This document shows positions 17,338-30,601 of a stretch of DNA of 56,715 bases, in pieces. The stretch spans positions 1 to 56,715 of the forward strand of contig CAMNEB010000001.1 in the NCBI GenBank assembly GCA_946536155.1, given 5' to 3'. Every line of letters starts with the position of its first letter. Within the stretch, counting starts at the first letter, position 1. Under the pieces are notes generated by a model. The model saw nothing but the letters and a program-made list of their open reading frames with translations, made no database searches and was not told the DNA's origin. The stretch is from an uncultured Lachnospiraceae bacterium (GTDB lineage: Bacteria; Bacillota; Clostridia; Lachnospirales; Lachnospiraceae). Made by a program: the position numbers and the translations under genes.

Positions 17338-18129
17338 TCAGGCTGCAAGATCTCTTCTGTCAAAATATATGACCGCACCCGCCACGCAGCAAAGAAGTAT
17401 CAAAAGTCCGCACACAACAGCCTTTGCAGGTATTTCACTGCCGGAGAAGATCTCCGATGCATTGACATATGAATAAGGACCTGCGAACAGATAATCCTTC
17501 ATATCGGGAACGATCCTGCCTATCAGATCATATACATAAAAAACAAGCGCGATGCCGATTCCCATACCCATGCGGTTTTTCCCGGAAAGAGACGATATGG
17601 CAAAACAGATTCCGCCGATCTCCGCATTCATCACAAAGCTCATCATCATAAATCTCAGGAATTCCTCAGCAGGGATCTCTTCCCCCAGGATTACAAAGCC
17701 CAGCAGATACAAAAGCCCGCAGATAAGCGTAAAGACCGCGAGATCTATGACCACGCAGAGTCCCTTGGCGAGCAGTACCTTCCTGCGGGATATGGGAAGC
17801 GCGAAGAGGAATTCACCGCTGTGTCCCTCTTCTTCCTTGGATATGATGCCTATGGCAAGTATGGCGGCAAACATTCCTCCGCCCAGTCCGTGGACCGTCC
17901 CGACCTCGGTCGCAAAATATCCCTTTAAGGTGGCGATGCTGAGCGTGCTCATTCCGAATGCATCGGAAAAAGCTCCCATATTTGAAAATGCATCCGCCAT
18001 TTCCTGCATGTCACCCTGCATGCTGCTGTAGAGTAGTATGCAGGCAAGCCCCATGCCGCCCACAGACAATGCCCAGATGAGCAGGGTCTTAAGGTTCATC
18101 TTCATCTCCCGTAAAAATACATATTTCAT
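17338..18129 (-). CDS. ABC-2 type transporter permease
   Basis: About 6 TMs. ISKEEEGHSGEFLFALPISR motif. Confidence 0.88.
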   Translation of the reverse strand: MKYVFLREMKMNLKTLLIWALSVGGMGLACILLYSSMQGDMQEMADAFSNMGAFSDAFGMSTLSIATLKGYFATEVGTVHGLGGGMFAAILAIGIISKEEEGHSGEFLFALPISRRKVLLAKGLCVVIDLAVFTLICGLLYLLGFVILGEEIPAEEFLRFMMMSFVMNAEIGGICFAISSLSGKNRMGMGIGIALVFYVYDLIGRIVPDMKDYLFAGPYSYVNASEIFSGSEIPAKAVVCGLLILLCCVAGAVIYFDRRDLAA

Positions 18130-18133
18130 ATGA

Positions 18134-18823
18134 TCACTCCTCATCTTCATAAAACTTAAGAAACGTATCGTCGTCGATCTTCGGATCGTCCAGCATGGTG
18201 AGCATCCCGTCCCTCATGATCGCGGCATTTTTGCAGTATTTGTTCACCTCTGAGAGAACGTGGGTGGAAAGAAGACATGTGGCACCCTGTGCGACATACC
18301 CGTTTATCAGTTCAAAGAACTTCTTCTGTATCAGCGGATCGAGGCCGCTGGTAGGCTCATCAAAGATAAAAAGCTTCGGCCTGTGCTGCATCGCGCACAC
18401 TATGCTGACCTTTTTCCTGTTTCCGAGGGACAGTTCCTTTATCCGCCTGCCCGTATCGAGCTTGAGTTTTTCGGATATGATCCCCGCTTCCTCCGTACAA
18501 TCCATGCCTCTTACGTCCGCCGCATACCTGATGACATCGGATACCTTCATGGATCCGTAAAACCATGCTTCCGACGGCATGTATCCGCATTCCGCAAGGA
18601 TCTTCCCATGCTCCTTTCTGCTGTCATACCCGAGTATCCTGATCTCACCGGAATCCGGCTTTATGAATCCCAGCATGGACCTGATGGTGGTTGACTTGCC
18701 GGCGCCGTTTGGACCGATGAAACCGAATACATCACCCTCTGCAACCGTAAAGGAGACATCTGTAACTCCCCTGTTTTTTCCGTATGTCTTGGTCAGACCT
18801 TTTATCTCAATAACATTTTTCAT
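18134..18823 (-). CDS. ABC transporter ATP-binding protein
   Basis: GPNGAGKST, LSLGN, FIFDEPTSGLDP and STH. GAAGGGAG RBS before ATG 18823. Confidence 0.92.
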   Translation of the reverse strand: MKNVIEIKGLTKTYGKNRGVTDVSFTVAEGDVFGFIGPNGAGKSTTIRSMLGFIKPDSGEIRILGYDSRKEHGKILAECGYMPSEAWFYGSMKVSDVIRYAADVRGMDCTEEAGIISEKLKLDTGRRIKELSLGNRKKVSIVCAMQHRPKLFIFDEPTSGLDPLIQKKFFELINGYVAQGATCLLSTHVLSEVNKYCKNAAIMRDGMLTMLDDPKIDDDTFLKFYEDEE

Positions 18824-18855
18824 ATGTTCTTCTCCCTTCACCTTATGATTATCAG

Positions 18856-18888
18856 AAAAAAAATACGGGAACAATATCTGTTCCCGTA
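18856..18888 (-). terminator. Intrinsic terminator after the DUF3021 gene
   Basis: TACGGGAACA-5 nt-TGTTCCCGTA followed by T8 on the minus strand. Confidence 0.7.
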
Positions 18889-18909
18889 AAGTGCACTTTA
18901 TGACCGCTA

Positions 18910-19377
18910 TCATTCACTTTTTTTATGTTCCGACTGGAAAAGCTTCAGGTCCTCATTCAGCTTTTTGTCATCTATCTTCCTCTTGGTCCTGTAGATCAGG
19001 ATGACACAGAAGTAGAGAAAGAGCACATACAGCACGAAGATGAGCGTCGCCGGAACGGACCTGTCAAACCATCCGCCAAAATACGACACTCCCGTATATA
19101 TAAGGGTACATACCGCCATTCCGATGATCTCTCTGAAGCCGAATTCTCCGGATTCATCAAAATCCCCGAACAGATACACCTGGAGATATCCTATGACATA
19201 GCAGGTCAGGATCATCTCCGCCATATGGATCATGCCCGCTTCAAATATGCCTCCCGTCATCCTGTATACGCAATAGAAGAAAAGTATCGCAAAAAAATAC
19301 AGGCATGCCTTGAACTCTATCCCTATCTCTGTTGTCAGGTATCTTTCCCAAAGGGAAAGCTTATTATTTTTTTTCAT
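18910..19377 (-). CDS. DUF3021-family membrane protein (LytTR regulatory system inhibitor)
   Basis: About 4 TMs, C-terminal KKLNEDLKLF, directly downstream of a LytTR gene. Confidence 0.75.
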   Translation of the reverse strand: MKKNNKLSLWERYLTTEIGIEFKACLYFFAILFFYCVYRMTGGIFEAGMIHMAEMILTCYVIGYLQVYLFGDFDESGEFGFREIIGMAVCTLIYTGVSYFGGWFDRSVPATLIFVLYVLFLYFCVILIYRTKRKIDDKKLNEDLKLFQSEHKKSE

Positions 19378-19821
19378 TTATCTCTCCCCCTTAAGTACCT
19401 TTCTGAATTCCACGGCATATCTTCTTGAGATGATGATGTGCTCCCCTCCTTCGAGGCAGGCATCGATCCTGTTTGACGACATTCCCTTAAGGGAGACGAC
19501 TTTGTTGATGTTGATGATCATGGATCTGCTGCATCTGAAAAATGTTTCTCCGCCCGCTTCTTCCATAAATGAATTAAGTGTCCCGTCCAGCTTTATGACA
19601 GCTTTGTCGGTATAGGCAAATACCTTGTCATCCACGGATTCAAGATACAGTATATCCTCCGCATCGAAGCATATGCTCCCTTCATCCGTCCTGCCCCAGA
19701 GTTTGCTTTTTTCCCCATTTAGGATCGATATTATCTTGCTCACGGGGGGAGTCATTTCCCTGTACCTTACGGAAATACTCTCTTCTCCCTCCGATATCCT
19801 GACGATATCTATCTTCATCAT
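19378..19821 (-). CDS. Stand-alone LytTR DNA-binding regulator
   Basis: ILYLESVDDKVFAYT, FFRCSRSMIININKV and IIISRRY. No receiver domain. Confidence 0.92.
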   Translation of the reverse strand: MMKIDIVRISEGEESISVRYREMTPPVSKIISILNGEKSKLWGRTDEGSICFDAEDILYLESVDDKVFAYTDKAVIKLDGTLNSFMEEAGGETFFRCSRSMIININKVVSLKGMSSNRIDACLEGGEHIIISRRYAVEFRKVLKGER

Positions 19822-19871: not shown

Positions 19872-21098
19872 TTACGTCCACTTTCTGAATATCAGGCAGG
19901 CATTGTGTCCTCCGAACCCGAAGGAATTGGATGCAGCGTATTCCATATCGGGATTGCTCTGCGCCTTTCCAAGCACAAAATTAAGATCGCATTCGGGATC
20001 GAATTCCTTATAGCCTGTCATGGGAGGCATCATTCCCGTCTCAAGTGCCTTGACCGTTATCAGTGCTTCAAGCGCTCCGCTTGCTGAAAGGAGATGTCCC
20101 GTCATGGACTTGGTAGATGAAACATAGGGCCTTTTTCCGAACAGTTCATTCACAGCCCTGCTCTCTGTCCTGTCATTTATGACGGTAGAGGTTCCGTGGG
20201 CATTGATATAGGCGATCCTGTCAGCACTTATCCCGGCATCATCCAGGGCTTTTTGCATAGCTCCTATACATGTCAGATTCTCATAATCCGGAGCCACCGG
20301 ATTATACGCATCGCAGTTGCATCCGTATCCGGCTATCTCGGCATAGATTCTCGCACCGCGGCTCTTTGCATGACTTAAGGATTCAAGGATCAGCACCGCT
20401 GCTCCTTCTCCAATGACAAAACCGCTCCTCCTCTTATCGAAGGGGATCGAGGCATTGTCCGGATCATCGCCCTTATGAAGCGCCTTCATTGCCGAAAAAC
20501 CCGCCACGGGGAAGGGAATGATGGATGCATCCGATGCGCCCGCCGCCATTATATCCTCATATCCGTATCTTATCTTGATATATGCTTCTCCTATGGACAT
20601 AGCACCACCGCTGCAGGCCGATACGGAAGCCATGTTGCTGCCTTTTGCGGAAAGGTCTATCGCAACTCTTCCGGATGCCATATTGGGAAGTATTGAGGGG
20701 ATCATCATGGGAGACATCCTGGAGGGGCCTTTTTCCTTCATGACCCTCAGCCCGTCTTCGATCTTCTCGACACCGCCCATGCTGTTTGAGATGTAGACAC
20801 CGAATCTGTCACTGCAGACCGTATCCGGATTAAGGCCGCTGTCCTTATACGCCTGAGATGCGGATACTCTTGCCATATTTATGAATCTTGAATCAAAGAG
20901 AAGATCTCTTTTGGGCAGTGAACTGAAATCCGCATCCTTTACCTCAGCGGCAAGCTTTGCATCAAAGCCCTCCGTATCAAATGATGTTATGAGACCGATG
21001 CCGTTTTTTCCGTTTTTGATATTTTCCCAGAGCGTATCAGGGTCGCTTCCCAGCGAAGCCATGACCCCAAGTCCGGTGACGACCACTCTTTCAGCCAT
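19872..21098 (-). CDS. fabF: 3-oxoacyl-ACP synthase II (KAS II/FabF-like)
   Basis: RVVVTGLG. Catalytic Cys in SACSGG, His in NAHGTST and His in KSMTGHLL. SNSFGFGGHN. GGAGG RBS before ATG 21098. Confidence 0.93.
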   Translation of the reverse strand: MAERVVVTGLGVMASLGSDPDTLWENIKNGKNGIGLITSFDTEGFDAKLAAEVKDADFSSLPKRDLLFDSRFINMARVSASQAYKDSGLNPDTVCSDRFGVYISNSMGGVEKIEDGLRVMKEKGPSRMSPMMIPSILPNMASGRVAIDLSAKGSNMASVSACSGGAMSIGEAYIKIRYGYEDIMAAGASDASIIPFPVAGFSAMKALHKGDDPDNASIPFDKRRSGFVIGEGAAVLILESLSHAKSRGARIYAEIAGYGCNCDAYNPVAPDYENLTCIGAMQKALDDAGISADRIAYINAHGTSTVINDRTESRAVNELFGKRPYVSSTKSMTGHLLSASGALEALITVKALETGMMPPMTGYKEFDPECDLNFVLGKAQSNPDMEYAASNSFGFGGHNACLIFRKWT

Positions 21099-21135
21099 AG
21101 GTATTCCTCCGGCACCTACCTTCTGTGCACTCATC

Positions 21136-22035
21136 TTATATCGAAAGAAGATCCGATATCTTTTCGATATGACTTATCTTTACTTTTTCATTCTTCTTAA
21201 GCGCGGTGGAACGGATGAATCCGTCAACGGATCTTCCCGCACCTATCGTGATAAACTCATTTATCCCATCGGTCAGCATATTTTTGACGATCTCTTCAAA
21301 TCTGACCGGACTGTATAACTGCCTGACAAGAAGAGTTCTGACATCCGTGTCGGATCTGTTCCCCGTGCAGTTAAAATACATCGCCGCAGAGGGCTTTAGT
21401 ATCTCGTATCCGTCAAGCTCCTCAGCCAGTTTTCCGGAGGCATCTTTAAGAAGCGGTGTATGAAATGCTCCGGTAACGCTGAGTCTGACCGCCTTTTTCG
21501 CACCCTTTTCCAGGCAAAGCGCGGCGCATTCATCAAGCTGCTTATTATCGCCGGCTATCACGATCTGATCCGGTGAATTGTAATTGGAGATCCATACCTT
21601 ATCAAACTTACTGACCGCATCTTCAAGAGCTTCACGCTCCATGAACATGATCGCCTGCATCCCGGTATCCTTGTCCTTAAGCGCTTCGTACATGAGCTCC
21701 GCTCTTTTTTCAAGGATCCTGAGCGCCCCTTTTGGTCTTATGGAATCCGTGCTTCCCAGTGCCGTATACTCGCCGAGGGAAAGCCCCGCGCAAGCATCCG
21801 GTGTTATTCCTTTCTGTCTGAGCAGTTCGGAGAGGATATATCCGAACACAAAATTTCCCGGCTGGGAATAACGCGTATCATGTATCCGATCGCTTTCCGC
21901 GACATATATGCTCTTTATGTCAAATGAAAGATTAAGTCCGTCAATAAAGTTCGAAGCAAAGGAGCTTTGTTCGTAAAGTTCCTTAAGCATGCATGCATAT
22001 TCACTTCCCTGTCCGGGAAAAATAAATGCTCTCAT
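21136..22035 (-). CDS. fabD: Malonyl-CoA:ACP transacylase (FabD-like)
   Basis: FPGQGSE, AGLSLGEY nucleophile, NYNSPDQIVIAG and GAFHT. Start overlaps the AccDA stop (TGATG). Confidence 0.9.
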   Translation of the reverse strand: MRAFIFPGQGSEYACMLKELYEQSSFASNFIDGLNLSFDIKSIYVAESDRIHDTRYSQPGNFVFGYILSELLRQKGITPDACAGLSLGEYTALGSTDSIRPKGALRILEKRAELMYEALKDKDTGMQAIMFMEREALEDAVSKFDKVWISNYNSPDQIVIAGDNKQLDECAALCLEKGAKKAVRLSVTGAFHTPLLKDASGKLAEELDGYEILKPSAAMYFNCTGNRSDTDVRTLLVRQLYSPVRFEEIVKNMLTDGINEFITIGAGRSVDGFIRSTALKKNEKVKISHIEKISDLLSI

Positions 22036-23549
22036 CAGTCTCTCACCTTCCTGTCCCATCTTCTTATCCGTTCATACCTTGATTCGATAAGTTCTGCGGT
22101 ATCTTTTTTCATAAGAATGTCATACTGCGAGATCAGATGATCCCTGATACCTGCAGAATCTGTTTCAAGGTCTCCGCTTTCTTCGATGATGCAGTCTATG
22201 ATACCGTCTTCAAGAAGATCCGAAGCCATGATCCTCATTTCCTTCAGGAGCTCATTCCCGACAGGTTCATCCCTTCTCATTATCTTCAGATATGATTCGG
22301 GTGATATGACCGTATAAACGGAATTTTCAAGCATTGCCAGGGAATCGGAAACAGAGAGCGCAAGAGCGCCTCCGCTGGATGCCTCACCGATGACGACGGA
22401 GATCACCGGGGTCTTAAGATCGGAAAACCTGACGAGGCACCTGCTTATCATCCCCGCCTGTCCGTTCTTCTCGGAATCAACGCTGGGACATGCCCCGGGG
22501 CTGTCTATCATGTTTACAACGGGAAGCCCAAGCCTCTCCGCAAGATCCGCCATCCTCAGGACCTTTCTGTAGCCCGAAGGTTTGGTCATTCCGTAATTGC
22601 ATTCTTCTATCTCATCGACGGATCTGCCCTTGTTCTGTATGTTAAAAACAAAGCTTCTTCCGCTTATAAGGCCTATTCCGGATATTATGGACGCATCATC
22701 GCCTCCGATCCTGTCACCCTTTAATTCGACATAAGAATCAAACAGTCTTCCCAGATGATCGGCGCCCTTAAGCCTCCCGATATCCCTGACACATTTAAGG
22801 ACCTCTTTCAGATCCTTTGAGGCAGTATCTTCTGCAGAGGTCTTCCCATAGAGCGGATCTTTTCCGGAAATGACACCGGGGTCATTTTTTCGGACAGACA
22901 GGATGCCAAGTATCTTTTTAAGAACATCCCTCATCTCCTCCCGGGGAACGATCATATCCACATTTCCGTACTTTTCATTAAAAAGATCTGTCTGGAAATC
23001 CTCCGGAGTTTTTTCCTTGTAGATATTTTCAACTATGGTCTTTCCGGAAAAGCCTATGCGGGCACCCTTCTCCGCTATATTGATATCACCCGCAAGTCCG
23101 AAGGAAGCCGAAACGCCTCCCATGGTAGGATCCGTAAGGCATGATATATACAGCCCGCCGCTGTCCCGGAACCGCTTTACGGATGCGCTGACCTTGGCCA
23201 TCTGTACAAGTGCAAAGAGCCCTTCCTGTATCCTGGCTCCGCCGCTTGCGCAAAAAAGGATCACCGGCATCTCTCCGGCGGCATATTCAAAAAGTTCTGT
23301 CACAGCTTCGCCGACGGATACGCTCAGGGTTCCCATCATGAATCCCGGATCCATGACACCGATCGCGGCGGATATCCCGCCTATCCTGCAGATGCCGGTA
23401 ACAACGGCTTCTTCAAGTCCTGTCGCCGTAACCGCATCCCGCATCTTATCCCCGTAGCCGCACCTGTCCGAAAGATCTGTCTTTACCAGGTCAAATCCGA
23501 CAAATGTGCCTTCGTCGACTATGCTCTTTATCCTCTCCTCAGCAGTCAT
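22035..23549 (-). CDS. accD: Fused acyl-CoA carboxylase carboxyltransferase beta-alpha (AccD-AccA)
   Basis: AccD half: FMMGT, SGGARIQEG, LTDPTMGGVSASF. AccA half: GDRIGGDD, GYRKVLR, IDSPGA, IGEASSGGALA, YTVISPES. No N-terminal Zn finger. Confidence 0.88.
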   Translation of the reverse strand: MTAEERIKSIVDEGTFVGFDLVKTDLSDRCGYGDKMRDAVTATGLEEAVVTGICRIGGISAAIGVMDPGFMMGTLSVSVGEAVTELFEYAAGEMPVILFCASGGARIQEGLFALVQMAKVSASVKRFRDSGGLYISCLTDPTMGGVSASFGLAGDINIAEKGARIGFSGKTIVENIYKEKTPEDFQTDLFNEKYGNVDMIVPREEMRDVLKKILGILSVRKNDPGVISGKDPLYGKTSAEDTASKDLKEVLKCVRDIGRLKGADHLGRLFDSYVELKGDRIGGDDASIISGIGLISGRSFVFNIQNKGRSVDEIEECNYGMTKPSGYRKVLRMADLAERLGLPVVNMIDSPGACPSVDSEKNGQAGMISRCLVRFSDLKTPVISVVIGEASSGGALALSVSDSLAMLENSVYTVISPESYLKIMRRDEPVGNELLKEMRIMASDLLEDGIIDCIIEESGDLETDSAGIRDHLISQYDILMKKDTAELIESRYERIRRWDRKVRD

Positions 23550-23563
23550 GTTCGGTAATCCCT

Positions 23564-23794
23564 TTAGTCGCTTACGCCCTTGCTCTCGAGAAGATCGATG
23601 ACATCACCGACTGTCTCAAGCTTTGCGATCTCTTCCTCCGTGATCTCTATCTCAAATTCATCCTCGAGAAGAACGGACATCTGAAGCGCAAGAAGGCTGT
23701 CGATATCCAGATCGTCCCTGAGCTTTGAATCGGGTGTTATGTCGACCTCTATTCCCAGCTGTTCCGATATGACTTCCTTTATCTTTTCAAGCAT
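23564..23794 (-). CDS. acpP: Acyl carrier protein
   Basis: Acidic 76 aa protein. DLDIDSL phosphopantetheine site, LEDEFEIEI and TVGDV. AGGAGG RBS. Confidence 0.93.
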   Translation of the reverse strand: MLEKIKEVISEQLGIEVDITPDSKLRDDLDIDSLLALQMSVLLEDEFEIEITEEEIAKLETVGDVIDLLESKGVSD

Positions 23795-23809
23795 TGTTTA
23801 TCCTCCTGT

Positions 23810-24745
23810 TTAAAGGTTCAGTAACAGTATATTACATGTAAGGCCCGCGGCTGTTCCGCACAGTATTACCCTGCTGCCCTTTTTAAGGCGTCCGCTCTCT
23901 ATCATCTCACAGAGCACATAGGGAACGGATACGGATACCATATTTCCGAGCTCGCTTACCCTGTTTACGTATTTATCCTCATCGATCTTTAATATCTTCA
24001 TTATGAACGGCAGTACCCTGCTGGCCTGATGAGGGATTATGAGATCCACATCATTTACGGAGACGCCGAATTCTTCCTCGAATTCCTTAAACATACCCGG
24101 AAGCTTTTTGGTGCAGAGGCTGAATATGGGCTTTCCCTTCATATCGAACTGATAATCCGCCCTGTCCTCTTCCCGGTATTTCATGGCGGTCCTCAAAGTT
24201 CCTCCCCCCCTGATCTCCGTTGCATGCACGCCTTCTGAATATGTCCTGATCATGCTGCCAACAACTCCCTGATCGGGATCGTCGCTCTTTGAGATGATGA
24301 CCGCACATGCTCCGTCGGAAAAAAGAGTGTAGCTTTCCTTCTGGTCTTCATTAAGACCTTCGGATGCTATATCACTTGAGATGATGAGGACGTTTCCGTA
24401 TCTTCCGTCCTCTATCAGATATGACATGGTATCGAGGGCGGATATAAAGCTGGTGCAGGTAGTATTGATATCCATTGCGGGGATACAGGTACCCTTTGCG
24501 ATCCTCTCGTGGATCAGAGCCGCACTGCAGGGCAGGGGCTGGAGCATCACGGCGCCCGCGGAGACTATGCAGTCAATATCTTCGATCTTCATCCCCGCAT
24601 TTTCAAGAGCCCTGAGGGCAGCCTTTTCGGCCATGTCCAGCTGAGTCTCTTCTCCGTTGCATCTGTATCTCGTCTCACCGTTAAATTCAAATACATTGCG
24701 GGGCAGATATGATCCGTAACCTGCGATCTTTATATGTCTCATCAT
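23810..24745 (-). CDS. 3-oxoacyl-ACP synthase III family (FabH-like condensing enzyme)
   Basis: GYGSYLP and FSDGA. Cys-His-Asn triad in INTTCTSF, IPHQAS and LGNMVSVS. GTAAGL. Confidence 0.88.
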   Translation of the reverse strand: MMRHIKIAGYGSYLPRNVFEFNGETRYRCNGEETQLDMAEKAALRALENAGMKIEDIDCIVSAGAVMLQPLPCSAALIHERIAKGTCIPAMDINTTCTSFISALDTMSYLIEDGRYGNVLIISSDIASEGLNEDQKESYTLFSDGACAVIISKSDDPDQGVVGSMIRTYSEGVHATEIRGGGTLRTAMKYREEDRADYQFDMKGKPIFSLCTKKLPGMFKEFEEEFGVSVNDVDLIIPHQASRVLPFIMKILKIDEDKYVNRVSELGNMVSVSVPYVLCEMIESGRLKKGSRVILCGTAAGLTCNILLLNL

Positions 24746-26031
24746 CTTACCTTTCTCTCAACTCTCTTCATTTTTCTGGCGGGATCGTATGTATAATCTT
24801 CAAATCTTATCTCCGGCATTTCAAATCCCATCCTGCCTGACAGAGTCCTGAATTCTTCCGTTATGCGGTTTCTGATCTCATCACCTGTAACATCGAGATA
24901 TACGGTGATGTTTTTTCTGTCTTCCTGAACGACCTTATAATTCCTGACGCCCTCGGCATATATTATGCATCTGCTGATAAAATCGGGAAATACCGTTACG
25001 TCTTTTCCGTCCGGTCCGTCAAAGATAAAGATGTCATCCTCCCTGCCTTCGATCTTCTTTATCACCGCACATGCTGAGCCGCAGGGACATTTTTCCTTAT
25101 CGGCGACAAGGATGTCATTAAGTCTGTATCTGATTATGGGCTGGGACTTGCGGGTAAAATCGGTTATTATGGGAACGAATCTCTCGTCATCTATATACTC
25201 TCTCTCAACATAGATGACATCCTCGCTCAGATGGAAGCGTCCGCATTCGCACACATATCCCAGAAACCCTTCAGTACACTGGTATGCCTGATGGATGATA
25301 TCAAGCCCGAATATCCTCTTAAAATACTTCTCGTCATTTTCGGTCAAAACCTCCGCAACGGAAACTATCTTTACAGGCCTGACGTTTATCTCACCTTTTT
25401 CCATGGCAGAGGCAATAAGGAGCAGGACGGAAGGAGGTGCCACGAGTATAGAGGGCTGATATTCGTTAAGTTCCTTCAGATTCCCATCCATGCTCTTTAA
25501 GATATCGAAATATCTGAACTGTATGGCTTTTGAGTCAATGGTCTCGTACAGATTGTTATCTGCCCTCAGGAAAAAAGCGATCTTATGTCCGAATATGTTT
25601 CCCTTCGGAAGAAACCTTGCCAGAACGCCTCCGGCCCACATGGCTCTTTCATCATCGCTGATGATGAACAGTCCCCTGGCACCGCTGGTACCTGAGGACA
25701 GTCCCACAGAGATGCCGTCCAGCTTCTCGTCGAAATCCCTGGTCTTTTCCCCGTTTATCGCGATCTCAAGAGCCTTATCCCTGTCGATGCCGACACAGTT
25801 AAGGCGGTTGAAATTCTCCATCATGACATGCTTGTCCATATAGGGAAGAGCTTTAAGATCATCTGCGCTGTCCGCTTTTATGTCTCTGAAATATTCGGAG
25901 TGGGCCTTTATGTACTTCAGCTGCGCAAGGATGTTCTTCTCCTGGAATCTTTCAAGTTTCTCCCTGCTCCTAAAAACACTGAAGTACCGCCTCATAATAA
26001 AGTTCTTAACGACCTTTATCTTCTCATTCAT
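24742..26031 (-). CDS. Coenzyme F390 synthetase-related adenylate-forming enzyme (TIGR02304-like)
   Basis: P-loop GLSSGTSG, FFLRADNNLY, HQAYQCTEG, PIIRYRLND and IEGREDD (PaaK/F390-type adenylation family). Confidence 0.85.
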   Translation of the reverse strand: MNEKIKVVKNFIMRRYFSVFRSREKLERFQEKNILAQLKYIKAHSEYFRDIKADSADDLKALPYMDKHVMMENFNRLNCVGIDRDKALEIAINGEKTRDFDEKLDGISVGLSSGTSGARGLFIISDDERAMWAGGVLARFLPKGNIFGHKIAFFLRADNNLYETIDSKAIQFRYFDILKSMDGNLKELNEYQPSILVAPPSVLLLIASAMEKGEINVRPVKIVSVAEVLTENDEKYFKRIFGLDIIHQAYQCTEGFLGYVCECGRFHLSEDVIYVEREYIDDERFVPIITDFTRKSQPIIRYRLNDILVADKEKCPCGSACAVIKKIEGREDDIFIFDGPDGKDVTVFPDFISRCIIYAEGVRNYKVVQEDRKNITVYLDVTGDEIRNRITEEFRTLSGRMGFEMPEIRFEDYTYDPARKMKRVERKVR

Positions 26032-26825
26032 ATCTTTATAATACTCTCACTGTATGTATCATGACTGAAAGCAAGCCTGATACCGTCATCCGCCATCTTC
26101 CTAAGCAGCCTGTCGCCTTCGATATACGCCTTCATATCGGCCTGTATGAGCCTCGGGAAAAACCTGAACTCATCGGCCTTTCCGACAAAGCCGTTTCCCC
26201 AGCTCGAATCCGCTCCGAGGAACAGGGAATCTTCTATCATGCAGCAGAGCTGTCCGTTTGCATGTCCGTTTATCTTTGTGAGAAGGATTGATCCGTCTCC
26301 GAAAAGATCGTGATACGAAAAATATTTATTCTTTTCCTTCATGAGCATCTCATCGCTCATGAGCATCAGTCTCTTCTCGAAATCATCCGGCAGGAGCTTA
26401 TCAAATATCAGGTATAAAAGCTTATTGTTCTTATATGAATCAAAAGCCTCTGCTGAGAGGATGATCCGTGCATTCTTAAAACTCCCGACACACCCGATAT
26501 GGTCCGGATGAAGATGGGACAGTATCAGGTATTTTATCTCCCCGCAGTCTATACCGTCCTTCGAAAGCCTTACATCGATCCTGTCCTCATGTTTTATGAC
26601 GGTTGGATTTATCAGGTTATATAACTTTCCCTTCCATCCCAGGTCGTAGATCTTTTCGCTGTATCCGGTGTCGTACAGTATATATCCGGCTTCGGGGTGC
26701 TTTATCAGAAACACTCCCGCGGGGAATCTCACTTTTTCTTTTTTATGATGTCTGAATACCAGCTTCAGGTCATTGGTGCAGTATCCGCAGTCATAATACT
26801 TTATTTCGTTTATAATCTTCGGCAT
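26028..26825 (-). CDS. Metallo-beta-lactamase-fold hydrolase
   Basis: LYDTGY, SHLHPDHIG (HxHxDH), GHANGQ, GAD and SHD. Confidence 0.9.
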   Translation of the reverse strand: MPKIINEIKYYDCGYCTNDLKLVFRHHKKEKVRFPAGVFLIKHPEAGYILYDTGYSEKIYDLGWKGKLYNLINPTVIKHEDRIDVRLSKDGIDCGEIKYLILSHLHPDHIGCVGSFKNARIILSAEAFDSYKNNKLLYLIFDKLLPDDFEKRLMLMSDEMLMKEKNKYFSYHDLFGDGSILLTKINGHANGQLCCMIEDSLFLGADSSWGNGFVGKADEFRFFPRLIQADMKAYIEGDRLLRKMADDGIRLAFSHDTYSESIIKI

Positions 26826-27777
26826 ATTTTGCGATCCCTTCACTGAGGGTAATTAAGGGCTTATAATCCAGTTCTTCTTTTGCCTTTTCGATATTAAGGG
26901 TCTGGCTGTAGCCCAGCGTACAGATATTATATCTGGTGATCATGGGTTCTTTGTATATACGGAACAGTTTGAAGATAAACTCTATGAGTGATGATACTCC
27001 CAGCATGAATCCCAGCCCGAGCTTCAGATATTTCGGAGACTCCCCTATCTGCTCAAAGAGTTCTTCGAGTATGCTCTTGAATTCTCTGGGCTCTCCGTTT
27101 GTTATGTTATATACACTGCCGGACGGGACATCCTTTTCCATGGCAAGTCTCAGCGCCAGGGCGACATTCTCGACACAGGTTATATCCACGATATTCTTCC
27201 CGCCGTTAAAAAGAGGGATGCCGATCTTCCTGTTTGCCCTGATGAGCCTCGGGATTATGCTGGTATCGCCGATACCGAACAGTCCTCTGGGTCTTATCAC
27301 CACGTAGGGGATATCCGATGCACGAAGCTCCTTCTCTGCCAGGATCTTGCTCTCTATATAGTAATTCAGGCTGTTGGTCTCATCGTAATCGTCTTCCGTG
27401 ATGTTCAGCCTGTCCCTTGTTGTTGCATAGATGCTGGGAGACGATACGTAAACGAGCTTTTTTATATTATTGGCCCTGCATGCTTTGATGACATTGGCCG
27501 TTCCATCCACATTGGTCTTTAAAAAATCATCCCTTTTTCCCCATACGGTGGAAAGAGCTCCCGCATGGATGATGTAGTCCGCACCCTTCGAAGCCTCAGT
27601 AATGGCCTCTTCGTCACAGAAATCACCCACAAAGGTCTCGACGTTTTCCCGCTTCAGCTTATCGAGCTCAGCCTTTTTTCTTCCGAAAGCTATTACCGAA
27701 TAACCGTTTCCCGTCAGCTCTTCGATCAGATACTTTCCCAAAAAGCCGTATGCACCCGTCACCAGTACTTTTATCAT
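26791..27777 (-). CDS. NAD(P)-dependent epimerase/dehydratase, 3-beta-HSD-like extended SDR (OleD/YbjS-like)
   Basis: VTGAYGFLG, HAGALS, YVSSPSIY, YIESK (YxxxK) and IRPRGLFG. Confidence 0.9.
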   Translation of the reverse strand: MIKVLVTGAYGFLGKYLIEELTGNGYSVIAFGRKKAELDKLKRENVETFVGDFCDEEAITEASKGADYIIHAGALSTVWGKRDDFLKTNVDGTANVIKACRANNIKKLVYVSSPSIYATTRDRLNITEDDYDETNSLNYYIESKILAEKELRASDIPYVVIRPRGLFGIGDTSIIPRLIRANRKIGIPLFNGGKNIVDITCVENVALALRLAMEKDVPSGSVYNITNGEPREFKSILEELFEQIGESPKYLKLGLGFMLGVSSLIEFIFKLFRIYKEPMITRYNICTLGYSQTLNIEKAKEELDYKPLITLSEGIAKYAEDYKRNKVL

Positions 27778-29317: not shown

Positions 29318-30601
29318 TCAGTCTTCCCAGATCTCGATGGGATGAACTTCATAGCAGAGGATCATAGCATCATACATTTCGGTGGGCACCATTTTTACCT
29401 GATGGTATATCTTAATGAAATGGTACAGTTCATGGAAATCCTCTCCGAGAGAGCCGGTTCTTACAGTGCGGTTTATCACTTTCCCGAGAGGGCTCGAAGG
29501 ATCGACCGAGTCAAAATCAAGGTAATACATGTTCTCAGGCATGTTTCCGACCTGATATGCGAGCACATCATCGGAGCAGAACTTTTCTAAAGTCCTTCCG
29601 TCAGGTGCGGGAAGATTATCCTCGGTAAGATAATAATCGGTTCCTATGGAGAAGTAGCTGTCGCCGTAATCCTCCTTCAGATATGCTCCGAGAAATGTAA
29701 ATCTCGTGGAGAGCTCCTCCGTCATATGATTATTGTGGCAGCCGATCATTATGCCGGAACCGTATTCGCTCTCCTCAAGCTCAAGGATCCTGTCAACGAT
29801 ATCCTTCATGGCCGTATCTCTGTATTCATGAAATCCGGTGGTGATCTTAACCTCAAGCTCCATGAAATCCTTTATGACAAGAGCGGCTATGCGGGCCTTC
29901 TCGATCTCGGTTTCCGAGGTCTTCCCGGCATACTCTTCATGATTCGCCTCAAGGTCTCCGCAGATCTCATCCATCAGAGCGATGATCTCATCATATCTTG
30001 ATGCATCATATGTATCATAGGAATCGCCCAGAAGCTCATCCATCTTCGATGAATAATCCTCATATTTTGCATCATCAATTCTTTTGTAGAGATTGCTGAT
30101 GTATATCTTGTCATCCGTATCCTTCTGGATATCCATTCCGTAGAGACGTACCCTGTCTTCTTCGGGAGCCGTCATATTATATTCTCTCATCCATTCGATG
30201 AGATCATACATCTGCTGCGTTCTGTAGATCCTGTATCCCAGATGCTTTACCAGTTCACGGGGATTACCCTCGCCTCCCTGGATATATTCATTTACGAGAG
30301 CGCATCCGCCGTAATCTCCTTCAAGGACAAGTGCCCTGATATCGGTATTTTCCACCAGCACTTTGAATACTTCGAGTTTGAGTTCCTGAAATTCCCTGTT
30401 TCCGTGAGTCGCCTCGCCTAAGGCAACGATCCTTGTCCCCTCAGGTATCCTGATGTTCTCCACAGATGTGACGGCAGTGTCAAATCCTTCGATCCTTCCA
30501 GGCTTTTTAAACAATGCGATGCATACGACCACCGCAGCTAAAAGCAGAACCGCAGCTGCGATGATCACCTTTGTATTTTTCTTCACTTTCTCTCTCCTCA
30601 T
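29318..30601 (-). CDS. Erythromycin esterase (Ere/ChaN-like) family protein with N-terminal signal/anchor
   Basis: IVALGEATHG, LVLEGD, LIEWMREYN, LYGMDIQ, RD..M and HNNH. Basic then hydrophobic N-terminus. Confidence 0.85.
   Translation of the reverse strand: MRREKVKKNTKVIIAAAVLLLAAVVVCIALFKKPGRIEGFDTAVTSVENIRIPEGTRIVALGEATHGNREFQELKLEVFKVLVENTDIRALVLEGDYGGCALVNEYIQGGEGNPRELVKHLGYRIYRTQQMYDLIEWMREYNMTAPEEDRVRLYGMDIQKDTDDKIYISNLYKRIDDAKYEDYSSKMDELLGDSYDTYDASRYDEIIALMDEICGDLEANHEEYAGKTSETEIEKARIAALVIKDFMELEVKITTGFHEYRDTAMKDIVDRILELEESEYGSGIMIGCHNNHMTEELSTRFTFLGAYLKEDYGDSYFSIGTDYYLTEDNLPAPDGRTLEKFCSDDVLAYQVGNMPENMYYLDFDSVDPSSPLGKVINRTVRTGSLGEDFHELYHFIKIYHQVKMVPTEMYDAMILCYEVHPIEIWED

Follow-up and report, generated by a model that had tools for sequence, protein, structure and literature searches.

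A trimmed Lachnospiraceae copy of a modular condensation, reduction and adenylation cassette that may make a two-chain hydroxy lipid

Introduction

A 56,715-nucleotide stretch of DNA from an uncultured Lachnospiraceae bacterium (contig CAMNEB010000001.1; the whole stretch is called the window here) contains, at 19872..27777, eight open reading frames (ORFs) in which a reductase, a hydrolase, an adenylating enzyme and a condensing enzyme are encoded together with genes of type II fatty-acid synthesis (FAS II). What such a set of genes makes, and whether it forms one unit, is the question addressed here. A sequence-only reading had treated the eight genes as a self-contained operon for a beta-lactone, branched lipid, olefin or signal. 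Our comparison leads us, with moderate confidence, to regard the locus as a modular cassette in trimmed form, likely acquired by horizontal transfer, in which a four-gene core likely makes a two-chain, C2-branched hydroxy lipid and a supply tail likely provides only 3-oxoacyl-acyl carrier protein (3-oxoacyl-ACP). The chemistry of the cassette is throughout what we infer.

Results

A conserved four-gene core with an optional tail

Related loci were retrieved with an alignment query (a single-protein query gave none), and 160 were mapped: the 80 best from 343 hits in genomes and the 80 best from 384 in metagenomes, a set that leans toward close relatives and oral streptococci. Genes for a short-chain dehydrogenase/reductase (SDR) and a metallo-beta-lactamase-fold (MBL) hydrolase lay upstream of the adenylase gene in all 142 loci with enough sequence, and a gene for KAS III (3-ketoacyl-ACP synthase III) was scored by script as lying downstream in 116 of 144; L173, listed among the misses, holds a partial KAS III. 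In the window, the same four genes are adjacent and co-oriented. When the 110 loci with KAS III and at least 2.5 kb of downstream sequence were compared, 88 had the core alone and 22 had an ACP/FabF tail. The proposal that all eight genes form one unit thus fails, and so does the possibility that the tailoring genes never stand beside fatty-acid genes elsewhere.

The core was found in oral streptococci, Fusobacterium and, as more distant copies, a Bacillus mycoides plasmid (with an ATP-grasp gene) and the narI-purU locus of E. coli (with PAP2 and two desaturases); in E. coli it occurs in 674 of 5,426 genomes (12%). These TIGR02304/PRK07204 cassettes have the same four core genes, with 21-42% identity to the window proteins in E. 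coli and Bacillus and 40-59% in streptococci and fusobacteria. They are accompanied by desaturases and PAP2, ATP-grasp or glycosyltransferases without a fatty-acid synthesis tail, whereas the window copy has the tail and has lost accB, accC and the glycosyltransferase. No published work on the cassette or its product was found in the literature searched (subscription journals and supplements lay outside its coverage), in keeping with the earlier statement that no product had been characterized; a search of literature on Saccharibacteria lipid genes did not find the cassette either. All the enzyme families involved are known ones, and the proposed logic draws on MxnB, OleD and mycolate chemistry; new are the trimmed state of the window copy, the complementarity of tail and FAS II, and a KAS III-free corynebacterial form. 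The features of the locus are as follows, in order of transcription (27777 to 19872).

26791..27777, minus strand: SDR, extended, OleD/NSDHL-like, predicted C2-branched 3-oxoacyl reductase; core (NCBIfam/Pfam, PDB match, motifs)
26028..26825, minus strand: MBL-fold hydrolase, acyl-homoserine lactone (AHL)-lactonase-like, predicted thioesterase or transacylase; core (family scores, metal ligands)
24742..26031, minus strand: TIGR02304 "F390 synthetase-related" adenylating enzyme, PaaK-type fold; core (527 bits, model, Foldseek)
23810..24745, minus strand: KAS III, PRK07204 type, closest to MxnB/CorB; core, missing in Corynebacterium copies (sequence, fold)
23564..23794, minus strand: dedicated ACP, DSL motif, Ser33; supply tail (family match, identity)
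23550..23563, minus strand: 14-bp ACP-accDA junction, probable deletion site of ~1.7 kb (comparison with relatives)
22035..23549, minus strand: fused carboxyltransferase AccD-AccA without N-terminal Cys4 zinc finger; supply tail (family match, alignment)
21136..22035, minus strand: FabD malonyl-CoA:ACP transacylase; supply tail (family match, motifs)
19872..21134, minus strand: FabF ketosynthase, likely start 21098, predicted 3-oxoacyl-ACP maker; supply tail (488 bits)

Mapping of ORFs and junctions agreed with the earlier description of eight co-oriented genes with four overlapping junctions. The SDR and MBL genes overlap by 35 bp (counted from the MBL ATG at 26825), the MBL/adenylase and adenylase/KAS III junctions are ATGA, and AccDA/FabD is TGATG. 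The gaps are 15 bp (KAS III/ACP), 14 bp (ACP/AccDA) and 1 bp (FabD/FabF), the last being 37 bp if FabF starts at ATG 21098, which is preceded by GGAGGA. The eight-gene arrangement is no assembly artefact: none of the ORFs showed an indel in gut DNA from four runs, each of a different study and two of them labelled sheep or goat, the ACP-accDA junction was bridged by contigs in X2, X4 and X10, and one X4 contig covered the whole layout (X2 is possibly the window's own source sample).

Core enzymes

Families were assigned with NCBIfam and Pfam at curated cut-offs, and motif conservation was counted over 120-155 related core and 17-22 tail sequences. The adenylase was the only cassette gene to score well above a specific family cut-off (TIGR02304, 527 bits against 251.9). 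Its residues S112-S-G-T-S116, Y250/E254, D306, R330 and K420/K422 are intact and nearly invariant in relatives; its model (predicted local distance difference test score, pLDDT, 89) has the PaaK fold, with BT_0428, PaaK1, NatL2, ClxA and AjiA1 as best Foldseek matches. NatL2, AjiA1 and ClxA are ester- or amide-forming PaaK-family relatives. TIGR02304 and PaaK-type families made up its six family matches, among which the OleC family was absent. The best NCBIfam match of the SDR was OleD, at 204 bits (203.8) well below the cut-off of 580, and its best PDB match was sterol-4-alpha-carboxylate 3-dehydrogenase (E 6.5e-29). Its top matches act on alpha-branched 3-oxo or 3-hydroxy acids, and G8/G11/G14, Y140 and K144 are nearly invariant among relatives. 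For the MBL, the best family was the AHL-lactonase AttM (74 bits against a cut-off of 390), every lactonase family being far under cut-off; the motif H110-x-H112-x-D114-H115 plus H194, D212 and H261 is intact, with the metal ligands H110, H112, D114, H115 and D212 kept in 140 of 140 sequences. In a Streptococcus metagenome-assembled genome (L066:3950-6028), MBL and adenylase share one 692-aa ORF, either a true fusion or an assembly error; such an ORF also occurs in L172, a noisy contig.

KAS III best matched PRK07204 (298.6 bits, under the cut-off of 402), and in the window's clade it is ~18 N-terminal residues shorter than members of that family. Its triad C97/H239/N268 is intact and nearly invariant in relatives. 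The closest PDB sequences were MxnB (E 5e-40) and CorB (3e-39), followed by FabH (best 9e-35) and OleA entries (2e-18 or weaker). A fold search of 48,161 chains with the KAS III model (pLDDT 94) likewise gave MxnB (4v2p) as the best match (Z 41.8, root-mean-square deviation 1.7, 307 aligned), the next scoring Z 38.7 and OleA Z 37.0. MxnB and CorB, the head-to-head ketosynthases of myxopyronin and corallopyronin, join two carrier-bound chains (PMC5724707, PMC5506619). The chains so joined are beta-ketoacyl chains and yield a pyrone. OleA requires Glu117 within an [LIVYF]-E-P motif (PMC8180931). At the equivalent position 71 of the cassette enzyme, 26 residues before the catalytic Cys, 116 of 120 sequences have Ile and 4 have Leu. 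On this ground the enzyme is not taken for an OleA, a point on which the earlier reading is not supported. Ala241, two residues after the catalytic His (P266 in CorB), is kept in at least 97% of 120 sequences. In all, the enzyme resembles MxnB/CorB in that they are its top sequence and fold match, in its Cys-His-Asn triad and in lacking the OleA Glu at the aligned position; it differs in having no type I polyketide synthase (PKS) donors, in its His-Gln-Ala, and in the reduction and adenylation genes that accompany it. NocG, a non-decarboxylative condenser of two fatty acids (PMC9486936), was not used as support.

The supply tail and host fatty-acid synthesis

Family matches were also obtained for ACP, AccD plus AccA, and FabD, and FabF scored 488 bits against a cut-off of 494. 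Catalytic residues of the tail are intact and nearly invariant in relatives (ACP S33; FabD S94/R119/H200; FabF C174/H313/H347). The earlier statement that all catalytic motifs are intact has one exception, AccDA, which has no Cys4 zinc finger. FabG, FabZ and FabK were found in none of 25 tail loci, and the FabF tree repeats the clades of the adenylase tree (a quick tree).

We searched 24 host genomes, of which 12 had a fuller tail, 8 the core only and 3 (Lachnospiraceae) a minimal tail; the remaining genome was that of a Corynebacterium with FAS I. FabZ was found in none of the 12 fuller-tail genomes (draft genomes), the cassette FabF was the sole FabF match in 10 of these 12, and FabG above cut-off was found in none of five tail genomes. 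All eight core-only non-corynebacterial genomes had FabZ and a separate FabF above cut-off. The table of tail against FAS II (13/1/1/8 in 23 rows, without G063 and G068), in which scoring the three Lachnospiraceae as lacking canonical FAS II was a judgement call, gave a naive Fisher p=1.6e-4. Because the tail tracks FAS II-less hosts and holds no FabG or FabZ, it likely supplies 3-oxoacyl-ACP, in hosts that seem incapable of fatty-acid synthesis, the tiny, parasitic Saccharibacteria among them. Additional genes in several tails encode a FadD-like ligase, a phosphopantetheinyl transferase and a biotin ligase. The tailed cassette is present in six named Saccharibacteria genomes and in a similar one, with no FabZ or PlsY shown, though it is rare in that class (2 of 401 sampled); bacteria of the candidate phyla radiation have been described as lacking membrane-lipid synthesis (PMC10939385). 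A FAS-like AccDA-FabD-FabZ-FabG operon at L193:3168-9679 (G074:C12) is headed by a 792-aa gene with two ketosynthase (KS) domains, and similar ORFs of ~795-810 aa occur in G075, G076 and G079.

The window's genome itself has a separate housekeeping operon, the presence of which the earlier reading had suggested checking: contig C44 (L029:1225-10825) encodes ACP, FabK, FabD, FabG, FabF, AccB, FabZ, AccC, AccD and AccA, a complete set. That the cluster is not the housekeeping FAS II, and that it has no FabG, FabZ, enoyl reductase, AccB or AccC, was accordingly borne out, all of these being on C44. Both sets have ACP, AccDA, FabD and FabF homologues (33-46% identical), whereas cassette tails hold no reductive steps and are co-inherited with the cassette. 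The C44 operon lacks fabH, and the window's KAS III was the only one found in the genome; among 33 congeneric genomes, only 4 showed a KAS III C-terminal domain and the other 29 showed no KAS III.

The window's copy is trimmed

All ten related AccDA-bearing loci read ACP-accB-accC-accDA-fabD-fabF, and the five nearest relatives have a GT1 glycosyltransferase after fabF. In place of the ~1.7 kb that holds accB, accC and the first ~40 accD codons in relatives, the window has 14 bp, and its AccDA (504 aa) begins ~40 residues in, without the Cys4 finger present in nine of ten related cassette AccDA proteins compared; at locus L133 the finger is missing too, with accBC intact. Homologues of the relatives' GT1/GT4 enzymes were not found in the window's genome (83% complete). 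The cluster itself provides neither the Cys4 finger nor the AccB and AccC partners expected of a functional bacterial ACC carboxyltransferase; AccB and AccC are encoded on C44 only. The description "self-contained" therefore has to be given up, and the window's copy, being the least complete version, is ill suited to expression.

The window's AccDA nests among accBC-bearing AccDAs (support 100/99; long branches flagged), and a clade of accBC-bearing AccDAs excluding it was rejected (approximately unbiased test, p-AU 0.008). Because of this nesting, loss of accBC and the finger in the window's lineage is the simplest reading. The ACP is 59-72% identical to those of the nearest related cassettes and 41% to a housekeeping ACP. 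Branch ratios to sisters were 1.42 for AccDA, 1.49-1.63 for MBL, adenylase and KAS III, and 1.94 for FabD; judged by these ratios, the window's AccDA is no faster-evolving than the core.

Distribution of the adenylase

Of 61 related genomes, 3 had a TIGR02304 score above cut-off, the window's own genome among them; 33 other genomes of the genus had none. The nearest adenylases (72-76% identity) were in genomes labelled Erysipelotrichaceae, Clostridia and Bacteroidaceae, plus metagenome contigs. Because of this patchy distribution, we consider that the cassette was likely acquired horizontally. The nearest relatives' copies have 26-30% G+C against 47.6% for the window cassette, and a composition scan gave no island signal at the cassette. 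L033, labelled Bacteroidaceae, has a cassette of 26.5% G+C in a 1.3-Mb genome and groups with a Bacillota copy; it is possibly mislabelled or misbinned.

A KAS III-free form in Corynebacterium

The adenylase is not followed by a KAS III in twenty-seven loci (28 listed by script, minus the partial L173), and the four named ones are from Corynebacterium. KAS III was found in none of five Corynebacterium genomes with the SDR-MBL-adenylase trio, the positive control G073 being found. Pks13 matches occurred in all five, above cut-off in two and split across contigs in three. The trio, present in 4 of 151 Corynebacterium genomes, had ratios of nonsynonymous to synonymous substitution rates (dN/dS) of 0-0.25 over seven close pairs, indicating purifying selection; the two L046/L047 comparison sets were saturated. 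The product of Pks13 is a 2-alkyl-3-oxoacyl thioester. Because Pks13 accompanies the KAS III-free form and the SDR lies near OleD/NSDHL, a C2-branched 3-oxoacyl intermediate is favoured over a beta-diketone, an argument that is circumstantial. The cassette and Pks13 mycolate condensation would share this predicted C2-branched 3-oxoacyl thioester, Pks13 being present where KAS III is missing; they differ in that the cassette has a discrete KAS III rather than a PKS, and other reductase and release enzymes. In the quick tree, Corynebacterium adenylases nest in a Saccharibacteria clade as sister to L044 (95; loci L044, L046, L047, L054 and L132), and a transfer between epibiont and host lineages is possible on this placement.

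Discussion

Proposed route and product

In the route we propose, acetyl-CoA carboxylase (ACC) and FabD would load malonyl on ACP, and FabF would carry out a single condensation of it with a preformed acyl chain; with no FabG, FabZ or enoyl reductase in any tail, the product would halt at 3-oxoacyl-ACP. Hosts with FAS II would provide this compound themselves, dropping the tail. The C2 of a 3-oxoacyl thioester is acidic and can be deprotonated without an OleA-type base, and the MxnB-like KAS III would add a second acyl chain there; in corynebacteria, the 2-alkyl-3-oxoacyl product of Pks13 would replace that of KAS III. The OleD/NSDHL-like SDR would then reduce the oxo group(s), the MBL would free the acid, and the PaaK-fold enzyme would adenylate the carboxyl and transfer it to an acceptor as an ester or amide. 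Decoration of a hydroxyl would follow in relatives, by a glycosyltransferase or by an amino-acid-adenylating didomain; in the window's genome it would be lacking or take place in trans, and AccB and AccC would be drawn from C44.

Of 85 well-covered loci, 80 have a glycosyltransferase (GT1, GT4 of the monoglucosyl-diacylglycerol synthase type, GT21 or GT2) adjoining the core. Four of the five exceptions (L045, L049, L052 and L133) have a large AMP-binding didomain protein, of the amino-acid adenylation type in L052, and the fifth (L140) has the layout of L052. Given these neighbours, a product with two chains and a free hydroxyl is likely, and the neighbours count against its being a free beta-lactone, an olefin or a signal. 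From the pathway first suggested, the logic of condensing, reducing and adenylating on a branched 3-oxo acid is retained. Enterococcus and Fusobacterium copies (L053:4429-8240, L057, L168 and L028) are preceded by a short SDR, a GT21 of the ceramide glucosyltransferase/HpnI family and a 213-216-aa protein without a Pfam match; a GT1 also precedes L053, L057 and L028, but not L168. In G052, a GT21 lies inside the core.

Several observations weigh against the C2-branched, two-chain route. The adenylase's acceptor is its weakest link, and PaaK relatives mostly use small aromatic acids. KAS III is only 29% identical to MxnB, and a shared fold is no proof of function. It also has His-Gln-Ala in place of the His-Gln-Pro that has been tied to decarboxylation loss in CorB (PMC5506619), and because CorB's Pro266 is missing, a decarboxylating reaction could still operate. 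Pks13 occurs in every corynebacterium tested, which makes its presence there unremarkable. The tail/FAS II pattern comes down to just four independent pairs (sign test p=0.25) and to draft genomes without known completeness. It is broken by the window's own genome, which has both tail and FAS II, and FabZ is present, next to a double-KS gene of ~795 aa, in the three Lachnospiraceae whose tail is a minimal ACP+FabF. The tails L040, L041, L042, L044 and L131 have no ACC, leaving their malonyl source unexplained. As to acquisition, the cassette's 47.6% G+C is close to the genome's 48.2% and gives no compositional sign of transfer.

Other readings

Among the alternatives, a decarboxylative route with the same supply, which we consider unlikely, would have the MBL free a 3-oxo acid from 3-oxoacyl-ACP, the adenylase activate a second fatty acid, KAS III join them with CO2 loss to a beta-diketone, and the SDR convert this to a mid-chain beta-diol that is glycosylated. 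It would explain each of the four core genes as well as a tail without FabG and FabZ, it agrees with the FabH-type His-Gln-Ala...Asn clamp that KAS III retains, and it has precedents in PqsE (a thioesterase) with PqsBC (PMC4807248) and in a barley thioesterase and PKS pathway to beta-diketones (PMC10638390). Those systems likewise combine a ligase, a thioesterase and a FabH-like or type III condenser on a 3-oxo acid, but have no SDR or glycosyltransferase, and their ligase and hydrolase are of other subfamilies. The Corynebacterium trio, under purifying selection without KAS III, would have no diketone-forming step; the separate FadD-like ligase in Saccharibacteria tails makes the adenylase an unlikely plain fatty-acid activator, and the SDR's nearest families use branched 3-oxo acids. 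Quite unlikely, too, is a linear route in which KAS III/FabF would extend a starter once or twice, the SDR would give 3-hydroxy or 3,5-dihydroxy acids, and these would be released by the MBL, linked by the adenylase through ester or amide bonds (resembling rhamnolipids or N-acyl amino acids) and glycosylated. The decarboxylating-type KAS III triad, the matches of the adenylase to NatL2, AjiA1 and ClxA, the GT1 and amino-acid-adenylating neighbours and the lactonase-like MBL would all suit it. However, FAS II hosts already make 3-hydroxyacyl-ACP and yet keep the SDR (142/142), and KAS III is nearer to the chain-joining MxnB/CorB than to FabH.

An Ole- or lipstatin-type pathway, in which two acyl-CoAs would be condensed without malonyl and reduced, the adenylase would cyclize the product to a beta-lactone and the MBL might open it or convert it to an olefin, seems improbable. 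OleD is the SDR's best NCBIfam match, OleACD clusters with a glycosyltransferase have been described (PMC7064751), and the Corynebacterium/Pks13 pattern is compatible with a 2-alkyl-3-oxo intermediate. OleABCD and the lipstatin oleACD share with the cassette a thiolase-fold condenser, an OleD-like SDR, an adenylating enzyme and a hydrolase. In the cassette, however, OleA's Glu117 is missing in 120 of 120 KAS III sequences, the SDR is far under the OleD cut-off, the adenylating enzyme is PaaK-type with no OleC match among its six, the hydrolase is an MBL rather than an alpha/beta hydrolase, and a glycosyltransferase is nearly always adjacent. Ole chemistry moreover requires no ACP, FabD, ACC or FabF, yet these are co-inherited with the cassette, which would need an ACP/malonyl/FabF supply. 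It is very improbable that the window's copy is a decaying relic, or that the only role of its tail and KAS III is as a reserve for housekeeping fatty-acid synthesis. The losses of accB, accC, the glycosyltransferase and the zinc finger, the last required for carboxyltransferase activity in E. coli (PMC2831308), would fit, as would a KAS III that is the only one found in the genome. Against this stand eight open frames, indel-free in 4/4 DNA runs, an AccDA branch ratio not above the core's, the finger-less L133 that keeps accBC, and the 29 congeners in which no KAS III was shown.

If the C2-branched route is correct, the tailed variant would indicate what the core needs, 3-oxoacyl-ACP rather than de novo fatty acids, and would offer a portable system for reconstitution. 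The core occurs in commensals and opportunists of the mouth, gut and urinary tract. More speculatively, and with considerable doubt, the product might be a glycerol-free, two-tailed, mycolate- or ceramide-like glycolipid built from scavenged fatty acids and one malonyl. Together with the supply tail, the cassette might provide Saccharibacteria and other FAS-less bacteria with a membrane lipid of their own, and the same class might be present, so far overlooked, in 12% of E. coli genomes, in oral streptococci and Fusobacterium and, with Pks13 for KAS III, in some corynebacteria.

Neighbouring genes and expression

Genes for LytTR, DUF3021 and an ABC-2 exporter (17338-19821) come next, 50 bp beyond fabF, and no terminator-like site separates them from it. 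This block was considered as part of the cassette and rejected, LytTR occurring in 0 of 160 loci and homologues in 27 of 33 congeners; by this distribution, the block is native to the genus. In three congeners hflX and LytTR are ~15 kb apart, so the exact insertion site is not fixed. A promoter scan of the window was at chance level (15 found against 16.6 expected), and a look-up in the ESM Atlas returned uninformative names only. Four RNA runs gave short contigs only, at depth 2-7, for cassette and flanks alike. Convergent with hflX, an erythromycin-esterase-family protein with an N-terminal hydrophobic stretch is encoded at 29318-30601 (Pfam E 7.5e-42; EreB 43 bits against a cut-off of 750).

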